Virus record (IMG/VR): IMGVR_UViG_3300034691_000040
Span: 32,001-96,000 of that record
Origin: a virus
Length of the DNA: 64,000 nucleotides
Reading direction: 5' to 3' (one strand)
Within the stretch, counting starts at the first letter, position 1. The number at the start of each line of letters is the position of its first letter. The notes below the pieces were generated by a model that was given only the letters and a program-made list of their open reading frames with translations, made no database searches and was not told where the DNA came from. The position numbers and the translations under genes are program-made. Positions 5,000-47,738 of this stretch are shown one piece after another.

Positions 5000-6115
5000 A
5001 TGACGTCAAAAGATCATCGGGTAAGTGTGTTGGATACTTGTTCCTATTCGCCGCGTTATGGGGGGTTCGCCTTAACGCACGATTCCAGCAACACTTATTC
5101 GAAGACCGTAAGGTACGTTAATAATACCAAACAAGAAGTCGACGTTAAAGAACGTAGTGGTGTGGTCGTGGCGCTTGCGCCGAATCCGTACCAGCAAACG
5201 CGTGTTGAATCAATCGAGATTGAGGTTGAGTGGCGCATGACCAATCAGTGTTTCATGGAAACAGCTGATCGGTTAGCGGAAGGTCATCCAGGTGACCCAC
5301 TACTTAAGGTCGTGATTGAAGCGTTTGATAACCGCAATAAGCGTGGTGGTAAAGAGACTGAGACATCTTCTTTGGCCCTAAGCATTAGCTTTCCGCTCGA
5401 AGACTTGCGCAAGGCAGGTGGTTCAGTTTATCTTGAAGAGTTAGACATTACTTTAGGCATGCCTATTATGCCAGGTAGTCGAAAAATCAACCATCCGTTC
5501 GAGCCGCGTGAACGTGTGAAGAAATCTTTCGCAAGTTCGGTTCCCTTCGTGACGAATGAAACATTCTTGTTCTCCATGAAGGCAATTAATAATGATCAAG
5601 TGGCTAAAAACCACGATCGTTTTATGCTGCTTGGTAGTCAGGTGTACCGAGTACCGGTGGAGCGAGACCCGCACCATCAGAACGGTATCCACATCGTCAG
5701 ACGGCGCAATGCTGATAGTGATCCTCCAGACGTAGGTACTGTAGTCGAGGAACACATGACGTTTGAGGAGGCTGATAAACGATTTAGGCTTTACGATACT
5801 GTTGAAATGGCCCGCAAGATGGGCGATCCTGAAGTGCACTTTAAGCTCGAACTTGCAGAGATGGGTCGAGCGCAAAAGATCGAAGAGATTGCACAGAAAC
5901 GAGTGGATGCTGAAGATGCTGCTGTAATCACTGCGCGCCGGTTAGATCTGGAACGAGAGAGGTTAGAGATGGCAACGGCAAAAGCCCGTGAAGACTTAGC
6001 CAAAGACAGGGTGAGGAACTTTGGCGACTGGGTAGGTCTGTGTGGCAAGTTCTTATTGGTGGCATTAGGGGCGCTTACATCGCTTGCGAAGTTGAGTACC
6101 TTAAAACCAGTTTAA
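5000..6115 (+). CDS. Conserved hypothetical protein with C-terminal coiled coil and hydrophobic tail
   Basis: 371 aa, GGGG RBS. E/K/R-rich helix followed by the hydrophobic segment WVGLCGKFLLVALGALTSLA. Confidence 0.65.
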   Translation: MTSKDHRVSVLDTCSYSPRYGGFALTHDSSNTYSKTVRYVNNTKQEVDVKERSGVVVALAPNPYQQTRVESIEIEVEWRMTNQCFMETADRLAEGHPGDPLLKVVIEAFDNRNKRGGKETETSSLALSISFPLEDLRKAGGSVYLEELDITLGMPIMPGSRKINHPFEPRERVKKSFASSVPFVTNETFLFSMKAINNDQVAKNHDRFMLLGSQVYRVPVERDPHHQNGIHIVRRRNADSDPPDVGTVVEEHMTFEEADKRFRLYDTVEMARKMGDPEVHFKLELAEMGRAQKIEEIAQKRVDAEDAAVITARRLDLERERLEMATAKAREDLAKDRVRNFGDWVGLCGKFLLVALGALTSLAKLSTLKPV

Positions 6116-6126
6116 ATAGGCCCAGC

Positions 6127-7770
6127 ATGGATATTGAGTGGTTCAACGATTTACAAGCGGACAGGCCCAAGTTCAACCAAGACATCATCGATGGTATTGC
6201 GTATAAGGAACTCAAGAAGGCTGAAGACCGCGTAGTCAATGTCATTCATTGCGCGGAACCTAGCTTTCCTGATAAGTTCGAGTTCTTGGGTGCTTCTGTT
6301 TGTGGACCACGGGAAACGTTTCAAGTCATCGCCGGCGGGTTAACCAAATCCAACCGGATGCCACCTACCGTGGATCTGGCCATCACCGATGCTAAGCTGG
6401 TAAAGTTCCAGTTCGCGTTTGATGACCGGGAATTATATCCTCGGTATTTCTACGTGCCCTATAGTCGCCTCGGTGGCTTCATGGGCATTGCAGGCAACCA
6501 GTTCCTGATCAGTGCAGTCTTGGCAGACCCATGCTTTAGCGTGGGCACTGACCATGTCTTCCTGCGTGTGAACCGGGCGCCGATGACGTTCAAGCTTGTT
6601 GATACGACCATGCGTATTGATGGCGTGTTAGCCAGTCGGGACATCCCGTACAGTTGGCTTCACCACAAAGGGGCCTCTAACAAGACCTCTGAAAGTGATG
6701 TATTGCAGTTAGGGCATGTTGTCACCACGTTACCGCATTATTTGTTCTGCAAGTACGGCCTGCGCGAAGCTTTCAAGAAGTTCTGCAAAGTCGACGTCAT
6801 CATTCAGCACGAAGACGAACCTGTAGATACAAAAGAATACGTGGTGTTCTCAAGCCAGAAGGTAAACAAGCCACGCACTCTGAAAATGAAGGCTGACTTG
6901 TACAAACTGATAGCATCGCCCATGGTGCTGTTGGTGCCTCGTAAGAAACAGTCGGAGTTGGTGAATCAGTTTGCAGCTGCGTTCTTCTACATCGTCGACC
7001 ACTTCCCAGAAGCACGGGAGGTTGAAGACCTGATGGGGGATGAGCTGTGGAAAGTATGGCTGGGGTATGTGTTGTTCGGCGATCAGCTGGGACGGCACAA
7101 GTTGGTTGAGAACGTTGAGAACCACCTTGTCAGAGGTATTGACGAGTATGTGGATCATGACTGTCGGCAGATGCTGTACGATGAGGAAAACCTCATCATC
7201 AACGACATCTACGAGCTGTTCATCTACTTGATCAACAACATCAAGGGGATGATTCAGAACAGTGAGAAAGATATCGCTAGCATGTTCGGTAAGCGCTTAA
7301 CTGTCGCGCCGTATGTGCTACGCGATATCACCAGTCAGGTCATGCGGTGTTTGTTTGAAATCACAAACAACCGCAAGAAGGTGTTGAAGTTCGATGACTA
7401 TAACAAGATCCTTGGTAAGTTCTTCAGACACACTGAAGTGTTCAATCTGAGAAAGACCAATGAGAAACGGTTCATGTCGTCTGTATCGACGCCTGGAGAT
7501 AACCTTCTCTTCAAACTCACAACCAAGATTGTTAAGCAAGCCCACACCTCAGGTAGCAAGAAGGCGCCTAGCGTTAACGTGAATGATCCTTCAAGCTGGC
7601 TGCACTATTCGTCTCTTGAGGCGGGTAACTACGGCATGCTACCTAAGCACGGACCCCTTGCAAACAATACCATCAGCCCAACCGTCAAACTGGATGAGAA
7701 CAACACCATCGTCGAGAAAGAACACCTCAAAGCTACAAACGCCTACGTTAACTACGTTATTCGCCGTTAA
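6127..7770 (+). CDS. Non-virion RNA polymerase beta subunit, N-terminal fragment (phiKZ gp123-like)
   Basis: About 547 aa from the ATG at 6127; the ORF-track start at 6040 overlaps the upstream gene. RpoB-like segments (YFYVPY...GNQFLISAVLAD, C-terminal NNTISP) and position two genes after the capsid gene. Confidence 0.72.
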   Translation: MDIEWFNDLQADRPKFNQDIIDGIAYKELKKAEDRVVNVIHCAEPSFPDKFEFLGASVCGPRETFQVIAGGLTKSNRMPPTVDLAITDAKLVKFQFAFDDRELYPRYFYVPYSRLGGFMGIAGNQFLISAVLADPCFSVGTDHVFLRVNRAPMTFKLVDTTMRIDGVLASRDIPYSWLHHKGASNKTSESDVLQLGHVVTTLPHYLFCKYGLREAFKKFCKVDVIIQHEDEPVDTKEYVVFSSQKVNKPRTLKMKADLYKLIASPMVLLVPRKKQSELVNQFAAAFFYIVDHFPEAREVEDLMGDELWKVWLGYVLFGDQLGRHKLVENVENHLVRGIDEYVDHDCRQMLYDEENLIINDIYELFIYLINNIKGMIQNSEKDIASMFGKRLTVAPYVLRDITSQVMRCLFEITNNRKKVLKFDDYNKILGKFFRHTEVFNLRKTNEKRFMSSVSTPGDNLLFKLTTKIVKQAHTSGSKKAPSVNVNDPSSWLHYSSLEAGNYGMLPKHGPLANNTISPTVKLDENNTIVEKEHLKATNAYVNYVIRR

Positions 7771-7796
7771 AAAACCGCCCGTTCCCTGGAGTGCCT

Positions 7797-9659
7797 ATGT
7801 ATAATGGTGGAGAGGACCGTCGATTAGTCGACTATGTCTTCAAGAGTTGCGCCGACCTGATTGATCGAAACGCACGCCAAAGTGATTTGCGTAACGCTTA
7901 CGCGGACATGATGGCGTCAAACCAATGGGTGAACCGTGACATCGACGGTTTGGTCAACGCTATCGTTGAAGCCCTGCCTGCGCTTGAGCGCCTATTTGCT
8001 CGCGGTAATGAGCAGTTGGCCGATTGGATCGACCAGGCCATTTCGAGTATGGTGGATGGTCACTTCGCCGGCATCATCTTGAAGTCTAAGGTGGCTAACG
8101 ATCTTGACCGTAACACTTACGAAGAAATGCGCCGTGCGGCCAATGGCTTTATCGATGTGTGCAAGACGGCTCAACGTGGTGGTCGTGACATTGGCCGCGG
8201 TGATGACCGCACACCTGCGCGAGCCGTGAACGACATCGGCGCTGTCGGTAATTACCGAGGTGGCGGTGAACGTGGCAACGAGAAGGCTTCGCTGGATGAC
8301 GGCTGGTTGGAAATTGCCCGTGCTAAGCAGGGCGTGACCGATGTAGTCGAACATGTGGAAGACCGGCCTGCTTCGCCACGCTATGTTGAAGAACAGGCTC
8401 GGCAGACGCCGCTGTACCGCGAACCTGATCGTCCAGACACTGTCATCGAAGGGCCTGATTACACCAAGGCCGATCCATGGCGTGAATTCTGGCGGCAAGG
8501 CGAGCACTGGCAGATTGCCCACCATTCCAAATGGAAGCTGACAGTCGATCCAGATGCTGACATCGACGATGGCATTAAAGCAATTCCGTCGTTTTACAAC
8601 ATCAACACCCATCTCAAATATTACGTCAAGAATGAAAGCGGCGAAGTCCGTGAGGAGTTAATCGAAGTGAATGACGATAACAGATACCAAGCTCATCAGC
8701 TGCTCGCATCCGAAGACGAATCGTTCAAACCACCAGTGCGTAGCGCCGGCATGTCTCTGAACCCTCGTAAAGTCCAGCCGGCCGATGACGTGTTGGGTAA
8801 CGATGTTCTCGACACCCCCGCTCCGGCGCCTGACCTTGTGGGTATTCTGGCCACGCTGGATGAAGAAAGCCTCGTTCCAAGCGGTGACAAAACTCTGATT
8901 ACTGACAGCCTGTACGCGTCGGTATTCAGTGTCCGTGCAAAAATGATCCGTGAGAATGCGCCGACCAGCGTAGAACTCTCCGTCATGCGAACGCCAGTAT
9001 TGGTGAAGTCGATTGACCAGACCGAACTGATCAACAAGGTATTCGAAGCCCCAACCATGATGGCCGCGGCCAACGCCATGAATGAGCAGAAGCATCTGTT
9101 CGAGCCGAATTTGTGGAATGTTCTGAACGACCGTATTACCAGCAAGTTCCATCATGCCACTCGTTACGCGTTTAGCTACGACGGCCTGAGCAGCAAAGTA
9201 AAATTCGCCCAACACTTCGACAAGGTTCTGCAGCACGTCGAGGGCAAACGCGGTAAAGAATGGGCGGCATCGTATGCTTCTCGTGTGAAATACGTTCTGG
9301 CGTCCGCCTGCGGACACTTGAATGCTGAAGATTTGTCCGACGGTTTGTCGGGCTTGGGTGATCTGACAGGCATCAACGCGGTGGTCTTCTCAGACTACCA
9401 GGTTGTTGTCGCGTTGGATTACACCCTGGACCAATTGGGATTGGGTAAGGCACTTATCGACAGTCCAATGGGTCTGTCCGTATCGGGGTCGGAGCATCCG
9501 CGTCTTCACGCTGCGTTGCTGCGCGTGTACAAGAAGCTGGACGACACCTATGCGGCGATCCACATTCGCGTCGTGTTGTCGACTTCGGATAATCAGCTGG
9601 TTGAGATCGTGCCGTACAGCGTCCGCACTTCGTCCTTCGTGCTGGCTCTGCTTAACTAA
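7797..9659 (+). CDS. Conserved hypothetical protein (about 620 aa)
   Basis: GGAG at 7788-7791 precedes the ATG at 7797. Long ORF with coding-like codon bias, co-directional with the nvRNAP subunit gene. Confidence 0.7.
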   Translation: MYNGGEDRRLVDYVFKSCADLIDRNARQSDLRNAYADMMASNQWVNRDIDGLVNAIVEALPALERLFARGNEQLADWIDQAISSMVDGHFAGIILKSKVANDLDRNTYEEMRRAANGFIDVCKTAQRGGRDIGRGDDRTPARAVNDIGAVGNYRGGGERGNEKASLDDGWLEIARAKQGVTDVVEHVEDRPASPRYVEEQARQTPLYREPDRPDTVIEGPDYTKADPWREFWRQGEHWQIAHHSKWKLTVDPDADIDDGIKAIPSFYNINTHLKYYVKNESGEVREELIEVNDDNRYQAHQLLASEDESFKPPVRSAGMSLNPRKVQPADDVLGNDVLDTPAPAPDLVGILATLDEESLVPSGDKTLITDSLYASVFSVRAKMIRENAPTSVELSVMRTPVLVKSIDQTELINKVFEAPTMMAAANAMNEQKHLFEPNLWNVLNDRITSKFHHATRYAFSYDGLSSKVKFAQHFDKVLQHVEGKRGKEWAASYASRVKYVLASACGHLNAEDLSDGLSGLGDLTGINAVVFSDYQVVVALDYTLDQLGLGKALIDSPMGLSVSGSEHPRLHAALLRVYKKLDDTYAAIHIRVVLSTSDNQLVEIVPYSVRTSSFVLALLN

Positions 9660-9688
9660 CTGACTTCCGCTCTACAAGCCTGAAGTCG

Positions 9689-9791
9689 GCAACGTAACGA
9701 CCGTGCTAGCACGGTGTAGGTCGAGTCCGTCGTCACTAATGTGATTACGGCAGGTTGCGGGATGTCACAAATCCCGCAGTCTTGTTTTTTT
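9689..9791 (+). promoter_or_regulatory. Structured leader (three-way junction) overlapping an intrinsic terminator; riboswitch/attenuator-like
   Basis: GCAAC 9689-93 pairs with GTTGC 9754-58 and encloses two hairpins. The same GTTGC lies within the terminator stem 9753-63/9771-81, which is followed by TTGTTTTTTTT. Confidence 0.45.
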
Positions 9792-9806
9792 TGTTCCGAG
9801 GACGCT

Positions 9807-10442
9807 ATGAACATCATTGAACAACTTGCGTTTCAAGACACCGGTGGCGAGTCATTTGAAGCCGCTAAGGTGGAGTATGAAATTGAGATCTACCTTGAAG
9901 GTTTTGATATCGAGGAGGTGAAGGCTAAGGCTTCGTCTTACGAGGTTCAAGAGCAATGGGGTATCTACGTTCCAAAGACTGAGCAAAACGCCTCAGGCGG
10001 CTCTATGCGAGTCCGTAGGACCGATACCACAGAGGTCGGGAGTGTGTTTGTTCACACCACCAAGCTTGAACGTAAAGGTGCCGGTAAACCTGAGCATGAA
10101 GTAGCGGCTCATGAAGACCTGTTTGACATGTACAAGTTGATGGCCGATCAGGGTTTGATCAAGACACGTTACAACGTTCCTGCTGAATTGGCTAATGGGA
10201 CTAAATACGTTCTTGAAGTCGACGTGTTCTACAACAAGTTAGGTGAGTTGGTTCCGTGGTGTAAGATCGACGCTGAGTTTCCAGAAGGCGCTGATGTTAA
10301 GCTGACCAAGGAAGATATTCCTTTCAGTTACACGGACATCATCATCTGCACCCCTGAACAGAAGGGCGAAGATAAGGCACTGGCTAAACGCATCGGTGCT
10401 CTGTATGAAAAGTATTTCCGTACACCCAATATCGCGGTTTGA
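9807..10442 (+). CDS. CYTH / triphosphate tunnel metalloenzyme domain protein
   Basis: GAGG RBS then ATG at 9807. Ordered CYTH motifs: EIEIY (ExExK-like), MRVRR, TTK, EHEV, KTRY, EVDVF, DAEF. Confidence 0.75.
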   Translation: MNIIEQLAFQDTGGESFEAAKVEYEIEIYLEGFDIEEVKAKASSYEVQEQWGIYVPKTEQNASGGSMRVRRTDTTEVGSVFVHTTKLERKGAGKPEHEVAAHEDLFDMYKLMADQGLIKTRYNVPAELANGTKYVLEVDVFYNKLGELVPWCKIDAEFPEGADVKLTKEDIPFSYTDIIICTPEQKGEDKALAKRIGALYEKYFRTPNIAV

Positions 10443-10452
10443 ATGAAGACAG

Positions 10453-10484
10453 CATATAGCCCGGCCAAACGGCCGGGCTATATG
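10453..10484. terminator. Bidirectional hairpin-TATG family member
   Basis: CATATAGCCCGGCC-AAAC-GGCCGGGCTATATG between convergent genes. Confidence 0.8.
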
Positions 10485-10501
10485 ACGTTACCCAACGGAT
10501 A

Positions 10502-20311: not shown

Positions 20312-20318
20312 GCATTTT

Positions 20319-20347
20319 GCGGACGGGCTTCGGCTCGTCCGTTTATG
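20319..20347 (+). terminator. Hairpin-TATG family member after the portal gene
   Basis: GCGGACGGGC-TTCG-GCTCGTCCGT then TTATGCCGTAA; cUUCGg loop. Confidence 0.75.
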
Positions 20348-21378: not shown

Positions 21379-21406
21379 GCACACCGGCACGAAGCCGGTG
21401 TGTATG
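21379..21406 (+). terminator. Hairpin-TATG family member
   Basis: CACACCGGC-ACGAA-GCCGGTGTG then TATGCCGCAT. Confidence 0.72.
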
Positions 21407-21532
21407 CCGCATCATTGAACTTTACGCTAGTCATACATCACGATGATGCCATACACCTAACAAGGGTTATTGGTAATCCCTCAAACAACCTAACGAGCAT
21501 ACACACTCTAGGGTTAGCACAAGGTAAACATC

Positions 21533-22690
21533 ATGAAAACTATCTGTAATCGTTTCACCGTTGACGGTCTGTTGATTAACGTGCACGATTTGAATGTTCC
21601 AATGTCCGGCCTACGAGACCTGTATACGGCCATAATCGTCACTGCTGACGGTGGTCCAGAAGGACGTAGTGATTTCGGCCTGTCTATCCAGCCAACTGAA
21701 GTCACTGAAGGTCTTTCAAATTACGATCTTCAGCGGCGGATTGCCACGGATTACTTTCGCAAGATGGTGTTAGCTGAGTTGAACGGTTTGGACATCCAAC
21801 CATCTTACTTGGATGGGTTACTGGAACAACTGTCAAGAACTGTGGCATCTCAGTCAGAAGGCGTTAAGCGCTTGGGTCGGATGTACACTCAAGACAGCGA
21901 TATGTTCGCGAAAATCAACATCGATGACATTTGGTCAGTAAACATTTTTAATGAAGTTCATTCTTCAATCAAATTTGAAGATGGGTTGTGGGGGCAGTTT
22001 CTTTGCAGCGCCATGCCAACTGCCATGTTTCAACTAACCCATCGTGAATACGCATATGGCACTCGTGTTCCATTTAAGCATAACGGCATGGTGGATATTA
22101 AACACAAGGATGAAATGCAACATTGGCTGAAAGTAGAGTTCTTGGAGCGTTGGGGCAGATTACTTTCGCAAGAGGTCGTCGACTCAATTGAATTTGTATT
22201 TGATGGTCAGTGCTTAGCGGTACCGTTACATGAAAAACGCAGTGAGCGGATCTTGTCACCTCACGAGTACCATGTGGGGGAGGAGATACAAATGGACAGC
22301 CAAAGAATGGGCCGGGTTGATGTTACTGTAACCCCGGGTCCGAAAGAGTTTTTGACACCGTCGTCATCCGAACACCAGATATCGGTGAGTGTCAATAAAC
22401 TTAACCCGCCAGGTGGTTTCTCCGCTGAGTATGAAGTGGGTACTTCGGCTGAACGTAGAATGCGTAAGCTGCGCCCCGGTGTGGAAATCCAGGTATATGG
22501 GGCAGTCAGCGAGATCACTGAAATTGTACCGCTGGACGAATCCACAGAAGCTGGTACTCGTATCTTGATTATGTCTATCGCGAGTGACGGTGAAACTTTC
22601 TTGTTCCTAATCGGAGCTCGTGGGCAAGATCACGTCTACGCTACAGGTATTCCCGTAGCCGATATTACTGACATTTTGCTTACTGTCTAA
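21533..22690 (+). CDS. Hypothetical protein (385 aa), accessory
   Basis: AAGG RBS, long ORF ending at a bidirectional hairpin. No motif recognised. Confidence 0.65.
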   Translation: MKTICNRFTVDGLLINVHDLNVPMSGLRDLYTAIIVTADGGPEGRSDFGLSIQPTEVTEGLSNYDLQRRIATDYFRKMVLAELNGLDIQPSYLDGLLEQLSRTVASQSEGVKRLGRMYTQDSDMFAKINIDDIWSVNIFNEVHSSIKFEDGLWGQFLCSAMPTAMFQLTHREYAYGTRVPFKHNGMVDIKHKDEMQHWLKVEFLERWGRLLSQEVVDSIEFVFDGQCLAVPLHEKRSERILSPHEYHVGEEIQMDSQRMGRVDVTVTPGPKEFLTPSSSEHQISVSVNKLNPPGGFSAEYEVGTSAERRMRKLRPGVEIQVYGAVSEITEIVPLDESTEAGTRILIMSIASDGETFLFLIGARGQDHVYATGIPVADITDILLTV

Positions 22691-22697
22691 CTAGCAG

Positions 22698-22743
22698 CAT
22701 ACACCCCCGGCATTAGCCGGGGGTGTATGTCTATTCTTTTTTT
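22698..22743. terminator. Bidirectional hairpin-TATG family member
   Basis: CATACACCCCCGGC-ATTA-GCCGGGGGTGTATG then TCTATTCTTTTTTT. Confidence 0.8.
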
Positions 22744-23486
22744 TAGTACTGTTTCACGTTGTCACCGATGAAACCTTCAATAAGAAGATTGGTAACGCGG
22801 TGGGTGCATTCGGCACGAGTTACGGTACCGTCCAGGTTCATGTCCAACCCGGCATTTTGAGCGTAACTGGTCGGCTGCTTGTCTTTAGACCACAGGACGT
22901 AATCGTCAGGCTTACCGACACCGGCCGGCCAAAGGATGGCCAGATAAGCATCACCGATATTATTCACTTTCCCCGCATACGGAGTGAAGTACTTCTCGAC
23001 GTAATCCAGTTGTTGCAACACCGTCATCGCACCCAACCGTTTACATGCCGCAATACCTGCGGCTTTCTTTTCATCGGCGGACATGGCGGCAATTTGAGCC
23101 GCAGTGTTGAAGTACACGATCGCAGTCGGCGGGATGAACTGAATCAGACCAGTCGCCCCGATGCCGTTTGTCTGTGCGGGATCAAAGCTACGACCTGTTT
23201 CGAAAGCGATATTGCCCATGATCCATTGAAGAGCTGCGGCAGGCCAGCGCAGGTTAGTGATCATCTGCTTCAGACGCGCTGTCTCGGCAGGACCGAACTT
23301 CACACCCCATGCCAGCTTGTTCACACCCAGAGGTTTACTTGGATCGAGCGTGGAGTTGATCAGGTCATTCAACGCTTTGACGGAACCTGCTCCCCAACCA
23401 CCATCGATTGCCAATGGTGGGTTGTAAAACCCCAGTGTCCTGAGCCAGGTCTGGGATTTCATCACCGTACTTTTTTGATCAGCCAT
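22743..23486 (-). CDS. Modular endolysin: peptidoglycan-binding N-terminus plus lysozyme-like/lytic transglycosylase domain
   Basis: QTWLRTLGF...IDGGWGAGSVKAL (PG-binding-1-like) and AFETGRSFDP...GATGLIQF (catalytic E plus GLxQ motif). Confidence 0.82.
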   Translation of the reverse strand: MADQKSTVMKSQTWLRTLGFYNPPLAIDGGWGAGSVKALNDLINSTLDPSKPLGVNKLAWGVKFGPAETARLKQMITNLRWPAAALQWIMGNIAFETGRSFDPAQTNGIGATGLIQFIPPTAIVYFNTAAQIAAMSADEKKAAGIAACKRLGAMTVLQQLDYVEKYFTPYAGKVNNIGDAYLAILWPAGVGKPDDYVLWSKDKQPTSYAQNAGLDMNLDGTVTRAECTHRVTNLLIEGFIGDNVKQY

Positions 23487-30396: not shown

Positions 30397-30432
30397 GCAT
30401 AGCGCCGCAGGCCATTGCCTGCGGCGCTATGC
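30397..30432. terminator. Bidirectional hairpin-TATG family member
   Basis: GCATAGCGCCGCAGGC-CATT-GCCTGCGGCGCTATGC between convergent genes. Confidence 0.8.
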
Positions 30433-30436
30433 TGCA

Positions 30437-34838: not shown

Positions 34839-34841
34839 CAG

Positions 34842-34890
34842 CATACACCCCGGTCATTGCGACCGGGGTGTATGTCTGCTTCTTTTCTTT
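34842..34890. terminator. Bidirectional hairpin-TATG family member
   Basis: CATACACCCCGGTC-ATTGC-GACCGGGGTGTATG then TCTGCTTCTTTTCTTT. Confidence 0.8.
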
Positions 34891-46605: not shown

Positions 46606-46612
46606 GCGTTAG

Positions 46613-46657
46613 CGCCGACCGGGGAAACCTGGTCGGCGTATGCCGCATTCTTTTTTT
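46613..46657 (+). terminator. Hairpin-TATG family member
   Basis: CGCCGACCGGG-GAAA-CCTGGTCGGCG then TATGCCGCATTCTTTTTTT. Confidence 0.78.
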
Positions 46658-47699: not shown

Positions 47700-47702
47700 C
47701 AG

Positions 47703-47735
47703 CATAGAGCCCGGCCGCAATGGCCGGGCTCTATG
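47703..47735. terminator. Bidirectional hairpin-TATG family member
   Basis: CATAGAGCCCGGCC-GCAAT-GGCCGGGCTCTATG between convergent genes; nearly identical to 4851-4881. Confidence 0.8.
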
Positions 47736-47738
47736 ACG

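Follow-up and report, generated by a model that had tools for sequence, protein, structure and literature searches.

The window analysed here is a stretch of 64,000 nt (positions 32,001-96,000) from the 126,847-bp IMG/VR virus record IMGVR_UViG_3300034691_000040, and the element with which this study is concerned is the complete 147-nt gap between the stop codon (9657-9659) of a gene for a 622-aa protein and the ATG at 9807 of a gene for a protein of the CYTH/triphosphate tunnel metalloenzyme (TTM) type. Comparison of this gap with its counterparts in related viral genomes indicates that it specifies a genuine, conserved and previously undescribed RNA of a clade of uncultivated jumbo phages, built around a covarying hairpin (HP3), an invariant unpaired motif directly 5' of that hairpin and an intrinsic terminator directly before the TTM gene. 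The features of the locus, all on the plus strand, are as follows.

6040-7770, plus strand: gene for a non-virion RNA polymerase (nvRNAP) beta/beta'-like subunit (phiKZ gp123-like), from a PHROG 'polymerase' match (E 1.7e-123)
7791-9659, plus strand: gene for a 622-aa protein without a Pfam or PDB match, stop codon 9657-9659
9660-9689, plus strand: HP1, a hairpin directly after the stop codon (CUGACUUC/GAAGUCGG) with apical GC-UCUACAA-GC, part of the minimum free energy (MFE) fold
9690-9699, plus strand: C/A-rich unpaired linker CAACGUAACG, holding four of the five bases of the proposed P1 5' strand (9689-9693)
9700-9715, plus strand: HP2, the 16-nt palindrome ACCGTGCTAGCACGGT, a clade-specific 6-bp hairpin with a compensatory change in the window clade
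9716-9728, plus strand: motif GUAGGUCGAGUCC, consensus G-W-C-G-A-R-U-C-C in 22 distinct sequences, unpaired, its last two C residues opening HP3
9727-9750, plus strand: HP3, a 10-bp hairpin with conserved base CCGU/ACGG and a top and loop free to vary, defined by a covariance model (R1)
9753-9792, plus strand: intrinsic terminator, an 11-13-bp G+C-rich stem (9753-9763/9771-9781) followed by UUG and U8 (9785-9792), identified by terminator scan and covariation
9793-9806, plus strand: 14-nt spacer with the Shine-Dalgarno sequence GAGGA (9798-9802), too short for a separate promoter
9807-10442, plus strand: gene for a 211-aa protein of the CYTH/TTM fold, identified from an AlphaFold2 (AF2) model and Foldseek

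Relatives were gathered by searches with the TTM protein, look-ups of the encoding contigs, one metagenome scan and two IMG/VR scans, and provided 22 distinct versions of the gap, with TTM proteins 45-95% identical to that of the window. Gene order was identical in all 22 and gap length varied from 141 to 174 nt. Among relatives of 80-84% protein identity the gap was 73-75% identical, as against 46-61% at the third codon positions of the flanking genes, and it therefore appears to be under selection. The element was present in every relative with a TTM identity of at least 45%, that is, at all loci from the contig look-ups and the metagenome scan and at 16 of 16 IMG/VR loci, always as a single copy, confined to the plus strand, that lies 50-115 nt ahead of the TTM start. 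It was missing from the relatives with 37-39% TTM identity (DT01, L037 and L066), in which a plain hairpin takes its place, followed in DT01 by TATG. Nor was it found in the cultured relatives that were searched (DT01, RsoM3USA and LucasX; 30-37% identity for the TTM gene), and the exact pattern of the commonest motif variant was not found in 185,579 prokaryote species genomes. When Rfam 15 was searched, nothing in the 64 kb reached the gathering score, and 9661-9806 had no match at E values up to 10, in agreement with the initial annotation, which had been unable to place the sequence in a known riboswitch or ribozyme family.

The strongest evidence for an RNA structure comes from HP3, which formed in 24 of 24 relatives when the MFE structure of each sequence was computed independently, and whose ensemble probability was at least 0.85 in all lineages but one. 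The hairpin is 10-12 bp long among lineages and has a base of either CC-GU/AC-GG or CC-AC/CU-GG; the upper stem is unrelated between clades and the loop, of 4-7 nt, differs in length and sequence in every clade. In the alignment of the 22 distinct sequences fitted to R1, a covariance model of the motif plus HP3, 88.7% of HP3 cells were paired, compared with 29-37% for structures slid by one or two columns; seven of the nine pairs had changed on both sides, giving 34 doubly changed cells against 13±3 in shuffles. R1 found exactly one match per locus, on the plus strand only, and the proportion of G-U pairs in the HP3 and terminator stems together (30 among 298) fits a plus-strand RNA. A second, weak R1 match was noted elsewhere in the window (22531-22559, plus strand; 19.8 bits, E about 0.004-0.006), inside the open reading frame (ORF) 21533-22690. 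Its sequence, GGACGAAUCCACAGAAGCUGGUAC, is that of the motif and the base of the stem in one-hairpin relatives (L065, L020), the upper part of the hairpin being absent; the likeness extends over 14-21 nt only and lies in frame in an orphan gene, and may be due to chance or be a relic of recombination.

Directly 5' of HP3, the columns of the motif were invariant or nearly so across the 22 distinct sequences, the window carrying GUAGGUCGAGUCC where most other clades have GUAGGACGAAUCC. There is one copy per genome, other near matches occurring at chance level, so that a general promoter or repeat was rejected as an explanation. No conserved complement was found in the upstream gap, the 5' untranslated region (5'UTR), the first TTM codons or next to HP3. 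Isolated good pairings occur in L018, L035, L016 and L003 and are not common to lineages; a helix between the motif and the bases following HP3, for instance, is good in L016 and L018 (GACGA/UCGUC) and in L003 and was no better than shuffles overall. Pairing of the HP1 loop with the motif (CUACA/UGUAG), judged by eye, holds in the window and L015 and fails in L003-type and other clades. In L018, L026 and L054 the motif (UAGGACGAA) recurs in the 3' strand of HP1, UAGGACGUC, so that the 5' strand of HP1 could pair with either; this alternative pairing of 8 bp is better than 99.5% of shuffles and was not seen in other lineages. Several known signals were also considered for this region and rejected: the T-arm likeness of GGUCGAGUCC lacks a T stem, and ARAGORN found no transfer RNA or transfer-messenger RNA gene in the window; a CsrA/RsmA GGA site is excluded by GGU in the window clade and the lack of GG in others; a hammerhead core is not conserved and has no Rfam match; and the phiKZ middle-promoter 'TACT' occurs in only about seven lineages and is absent from the window clade.

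The terminator was the top-scoring site in a consensus scan of the first 20 kb and the only site in the 64 kb, on either strand, at which a stable hairpin directly abuts a T run of at least 7. It combines a G+C-rich hairpin (-20 kcal/mol, two G-U pairs in the 11-bp stem) with a U tract, and compensatory changes are found in relatives: within the window clade 91% of helix cells were paired and three pairs had changed on both sides, and in other clades unrelated stem sequences adopt the same layout. A hairpin followed by a run of U7-10 and then G was present in 23 of 23 lineages, all of which also have a Shine-Dalgarno sequence and 14-25 nt (14 nt in the window) between the end of the U run and the ATG. 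About one-third of lineages (L015, L020, L021, L032, L036, L065 and L069) lack a second hairpin; in these, UAAUC or UACUUUC separates HP3 from the U run. These data uphold the central proposal of the initial annotation, a conserved structured RNA with a strong terminator directly before the CYTH/TTM gene. Its separation of this terminator from the TATG family of hairpins is likewise borne out, the 9753-9781 stem being followed by TTGTTTTTTTT and HP3 by CAGG, with no TATG.

In all other intergenic hairpins of the window the stem is followed by TATG, and in many cases UACUUC and a T run come next. This family corresponds to the terminator motif of phiKZ, a stem-loop plus TTAT (PMC10914365), and contains the nvRNAP start signal TATG (PMC12809450). 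G+C-rich CATA...TATG hairpins were noted at 10455-10490, 20318-20345, 21383-21410, 22699-22746, 30397-30436, 34841-34889, 46612-46657 and 47702-47738, and at 246-291 of L050; several are followed by (U)ACUUC, seven or eight T residues and G, and one is 86% identical over 37 nt to a hairpin in L016, a relative of 55% identity. T runs of at least 7 occur six times on the plus strand of the window and not at all on the minus strand (there is no A run of at least 7), with genes on both strands.

The fold initially drawn for this region was a three-way junction closed by a helix P1 (GCAAC 9689-9693/GTTGC 9754-9758), with one arm of outer CGAC/GTCG pairs enclosing the palindrome ACCGTGCTAGCACGGT (9700-9715) and a second arm, CCGT..TCAC-TAAT-GTGA..ACGG (9727-9750), which is HP3. 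All of these bases are in place, as are the 11-bp stem (9753-9763/9771-9781), the T8 (9785-9792) and an upstream GACTTC/GAAGTC hairpin (9662-9667/9682-9687), and the 3' strand of P1 does by its position overlap the terminator stem in the window itself. The prediction that the gap would covary in relatives held for HP3 and the terminator and failed for P1, and the part of the observation that withstood comparison is thus the second arm and the terminator; P1 and the CGAC/GTCG arm appear incidental. Full pairing of P1 is confined to the window and a 95%-identical twin record; within an eight-member clade 57.5% of its cells are paired, at three of the five pairs five or six of the eight members are unpaired, and even relatives with 80-84% protein identity do not keep it. 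The five P1 pairs had a probability of 0.0 in the full RNA and likewise when the RNA was truncated ahead of the 3' strand of the terminator. The drawn junction had an energy of -27.6 to -30.1 kcal/mol, whereas the terminator fold reached -40.2 and the MFE structure -51.6. The outer CGAC/GTCG pairs use bases of the invariant motif, and one of them is lost in six of the eight clade members. When a competitor for the terminator was sought in 13 two-hairpin lineages, its 5' strand paired upstream as shuffled strands do (mean z -0.17), with no lineage below 0.05. The proposal that P1 closes a three-way junction in competition with the terminator is not supported, and the riboswitch drawing relies on pairings that belong to one genome alone. 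Since neither a competing helix nor a conserved partner for the motif was found, the description that fits best, at the level of sequence, is an unpaired motif and a constitutively formed terminator. The 146 nt folded into three local hairpins plus the terminator, with no three-way junction; this fold was only modestly better than shuffles (z -2.25), and the minus strand folded less well.

The 5' half of the gap is more variable. HP1, to which the GACTTC/GAAGTC hairpin corresponds, is kept in the window clade (87.5% paired, one pair changed on both sides), and most lineages have a hairpin at this position with a semi-conserved C/U/A-rich loop, although the support is modest (mean z -1.24). In relatives the linker is 25-45 nt long, G-poor and YAAC-rich. 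HP2 of the window clade takes the form ACCGC-loop-GCGGU or ACCGCA-loop-UGCGGU, with a compensatory change from U-A to C-G, and is absent or displaced outside that clade, where other hairpins or a G-poor C/A-rich linker replace HP1 and HP2. In the L028-L030 group the linker contains an MWPHPTI-like ORF of seven codons with no obvious ribosome-binding site; it is not conserved elsewhere, and a leader peptide was rejected because the ORF is confined to this group. Contigs from one peat metatranscriptome (X2) also cover the region, one contig (7150-9720) stopping inside the motif and the next starting at 9965; RNA ends are not visible in contigs, DNA may have been carried over and a single study supplied the data, which were not used as evidence.

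The label CYTH that had been given to the downstream gene holds. The protein gave no Pfam match by sequence, and a search of the PDB with its profile gave nothing significant. An AF2 model built from 13 relatives (predicted local distance difference test score, pLDDT, 79.5) was used for a Foldseek search of PDB folds, in which the best 14 matches were all TTM/CYTH-type proteins, the top ones with probability 1.00; NE1496 triphosphatase, AtTTM3, SaTTM and PH1819 led the matches with E values of 6e-5 to 1e-3. The predicted structure thus places the protein in the eight-stranded tunnel fold of the CYTH/TTM enzymes, and its DT01 homologue is annotated as CthTTM-like. The start is the ATG at 9807, which is preceded by GAGGA, and not the GTG at 9741 given by a mechanical ORF list. 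Residues 1-22 (9807-9872) are predicted to be disordered (pLDDT below 50) and lie ahead of the first tunnel strand, EYEIEIY. The lower-ranked fold matches include a chain of the vaccinia RNA polymerase complex, 6rfl_O (E 0.016), which we take for the large subunit of the capping enzyme, with a triphosphatase domain of the TTM type; if so, a role of the TTM protein at RNA 5' ends is possible.

The TTM gene is the final plus-strand gene ahead of convergent genes, and the polymerase-subunit gene at 6040-7770 is the first shown of the plus-strand run that contains the element. The syntenic gene of phage pPa_SNUABM_DT01 carries the annotation nvRNAP subunit similar to phiKZ123. The 622-aa gene occupies the same position in every relative fetched (length 620-713 aa), and a search of the PDB with its protein sequence found nothing significant. 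A blastn search against cultured phages gave no DNA match. The gp123-like nvRNAP subunit, the RuvC and DUF7208 neighbours and the occurrence of relatives of the TTM gene solely in jumbo phages (hosts Pseudomonas, Ralstonia, Burkholderia, Xanthomonas and, for Goslar, E. coli) lead us to assign the source, on gene content, to an uncultivated phiKZ-like (Chimalliviridae-type) jumbo phage.

The conservation of the element, its strand, its covariation, the anatomy of the terminator and the lack of alternative pairing are direct observations, and our current working hypothesis, to which we would give roughly an even chance, is that the element is an intra-operon attenuator, that the terminated product is a structured RNA and that the motif and the base of HP3 form a site for a trans-acting factor. 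Transcripts from the RNA-polymerase-subunit and 622-aa genes would mostly end at the U run, and termination would yield either a short stable RNA or a transcript with a structured 3' end; expression of the TTM gene would then depend solely on the fraction that reads through. Because the 14-25 nt between the U run and the ATG leave no room for a promoter, the TTM mRNA must pass the terminator, and in anatomy the element is an attenuator. No RNA structure was found to compete with the terminator, and regulation, if any, would therefore act through a trans-acting factor, protein or RNA, that recognizes the motif and the base of HP3, making a ligand-driven switch unlikely; the site would be of the nut/put-like or protein-dependent antitermination type and not a ligand-stabilized P1. 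The interpretation first placed on the locus thus survives as far as a structured RNA and a terminator are concerned, and its mechanism of competition through P1 does not. The efficiency of termination, the dependence of the TTM gene on read-through and the trans-acting factor are what we infer from this arrangement, and several points count against it: the factor is hypothetical; termination by the phage's non-canonical RNA polymerases at a hairpin with U8 is assumed; a promoter inside the gap, for example one formed by TATG-like bases of the motif, is possible and would make the element a 5' leader instead of an operon-internal site; the roles of HP3 and of the terminator may differ between clades, as the one-third of lineages lacking a second hairpin have the U run 5-8 nt after HP3; and HP1 and the linker are weakly supported as structure.

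The main competitor of the attenuator, credible but about half as probable in our judgement, is a trans-acting small RNA (sRNA), in which the terminated product base-pairs with other RNAs through the motif as its seed, HP3 and the terminator with its long U tail form a stabilizing or chaperone-binding 3' module, and gating of the TTM gene is a side effect. Such an RNA could be processed from the upstream gene's 3'UTR or begin at a start site inside the gap. An invariant single strand, one or two hairpins and a U8-9 tail are the architecture of a 3'UTR-derived Hfq-type sRNA (PMC9438474), the motif has no intramolecular partner, and phiKZ and other lytic phages make short UTR-derived RNAs of unknown function. 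Complementary sites in two phage genomes were, however, at chance level, the best-looking ones being same-sense in a minus-strand gene or non-homologous between the genomes, and as the downstream gene lacks its own promoter an effect in cis is unavoidable. The release of a small RNA by termination, which had been raised at the outset as the alternative to a switch, accordingly stays viable, although without an above-chance target in these two genomes. We regard as improbable a signal acting at the DNA level, with the motif read in the non-template strand by a phage RNA polymerase, either as a degenerate TATG-type start for which HP3 and the terminator would be the 5' leader and the product an aborted RNA of roughly 70 nt, or as a pause or antitermination-factor loading site ahead of the terminator (ops-like or lambda-Q-like). 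The lack of an RNA pairing partner is as this reading predicts, the 5' part of the motif, UGUAGGUC, resembles the flank UGUAUGUC of the phage's terminator/promoter hairpins (L032 has GUAUGUCGAAUCC), and the phiKZ nvRNAP reads single-stranded non-template TATG via a gp123-like subunit and starts at the G (PMC12809450). Yet the four bases vary in the element (TAGG, CAGG, GATG, TAGT, TCTG, CTTG), whereas the family hairpins in the window all keep TATG, and TATG substitutions in phiKZ abolish or greatly reduce transcription; moreover, the invariant GWCGARUCC lies downstream of these bases and runs into a hairpin that covaries as RNA, and a motif present once per genome is not a general promoter.

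Two simpler or more familiar explanations are harder still to reconcile with the data. A plain operon-end terminator, with the extra hairpins a product of drift or a stability element without specific recognition, is very unlikely: more distant relatives do manage with a single hairpin here, and HP1, HP2 and the linker vary widely, but a 9-nt motif and an HP3 base that are nearly invariant across lineages with flanking proteins 45-55% identical are not accounted for, nor is a gap more conserved than synonymous sites. Marginally less probable even than this is the metabolite-controlled ON switch initially favoured, in which a ligand-stabilized closing helix would sequester the 5' strand of the terminator and permit read-through into the TTM gene. 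Conserved unpaired bases beside a covarying helix, directly upstream of a terminator and a gene for a triphosphate-handling enzyme, are what such a switch would offer, and in the window P1 does overlap the terminator stem. Against this stand the lack of conservation and zero probability of P1, the absence from the 13 lineages of a better-than-shuffle partner for the 5' strand of the terminator or, overall, of such a helix between the motif and the bases after HP3, an HP3 loop that is not conserved and for which no pseudoknot partner was found, the absence of a separate terminator hairpin in about one-third of lineages, and the lack of an Rfam match even at E values up to 10. With P1 unconserved and no alternative fold, ligand control by this route is unlikely.

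How nucleus-forming jumbo phages regulate their genes is poorly understood; the promoters used by their polymerases are tiny, and phiKZ has dozens of terminator-ended RNAs without a known role. The element offers a comparative handle that the phiKZ short RNAs do not, being single-copy, available in at least 22 natural variants and equipped with a covarying hairpin and a 9-nt invariant unpaired motif, and it is thus a defined object with which to ask whether intrinsic terminators stop these polymerases, whether read-through is under the control of a factor and whether trans-acting RNAs operate in lytic jumbo phages. More specifically, the motif and hairpin could be the site at which a phage factor, or with smaller likelihood a small ligand, controls read-through of the terminator by the phage's non-canonical multisubunit polymerase, a proposal that we consider speculative, with a probability of perhaps one in five. 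If true, it would give the polymerase family of nucleus-forming jumbo phages its first described cis-acting switch of antitermination or attenuation, one that would time the expression of a triphosphate tunnel enzyme.

Comparison with known systems places the element nearest to the short RNAs of phiKZ. Like transcription-terminating riboswitches it has a structured leader, conserved unpaired bases and an intrinsic terminator before a metabolic gene, but, unlike them, it contains no conserved helix that aptamer and terminator would share, lacks an alternative fold and matches no Rfam class; neither a conserved P1 exclusive with the terminator nor a described aptamer class was found. With lambda nut (boxA-boxB) and HK022 put it shares a conserved single-stranded box next to a hairpin, upstream of a terminator that bars downstream genes. 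The loop of boxB is conserved, however, whereas in HP3 the loop is free to vary and the base of the stem is conserved, so that HP3 is not a conserved-loop hairpin of the lambda type; the polymerase, too, is probably the phage's own, and an N-like protein was not identified. The sequence CGCUCUACAA in the HP1 loop resembles boxA (CGCUCUUA), a likeness that is not kept in other clades, and a lambda boxA was rejected on this ground. Hfq-type 3'UTR sRNAs such as CpxQ and SroC (PMC9438474) are built like the element: where a coding operon ends, a conserved single strand leads into one or two hairpins and a long U tail, and conservation exceeds that of neighbouring wobble positions; one or two hairpins with a U tail of at least seven residues are found in all lineages of the element (U7-10). 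The likeness is one of architecture only, and the next gene of the element starts 14-25 nt after the U tail.

Within jumbo phages, the TTAT/TATG terminators of the phiKZ type are, like the element, G+C-rich hairpins between genes, and the tail UAC-UUC-U8-G, which follows the TATG-family hairpins of this phage, also follows HP3 in one-hairpin relatives. The element differs from that family in having no TATG after either hairpin, in the replacement of the family's CAUACA/UGUAUG stem extension by the 5' motif and, in the window, in a U run that abuts the stem directly. In phiKZ itself, 42 terminators lie inside 5'UTRs and give rise to abundant short RNAs and rarer read-through, as confirmed by northern blotting (PMC10914365); examples are an RNA of about 71 nt ended by T102 before PHIKZ221 and a 141-nt RNA before PHIKZ302 (Putzeys et al. 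2024, PMC10914365). The terminator of the element likewise lies in an untranslated region just upstream of a gene. Both occur in jumbo phages with their own multisubunit RNA polymerases, both place a terminator directly before a gene, with a structured short RNA and rarer read-through (predicted in the case of the element), and both are conserved among relatives and of unknown function. They are likened by layout and not by sequence, and the RNA of the element could be the upstream operon's 3' end; the phiKZ RNAs end in a hairpin with TTAT, whereas the element ends in a hairpin with U8 and carries, in addition, an invariant unpaired motif.

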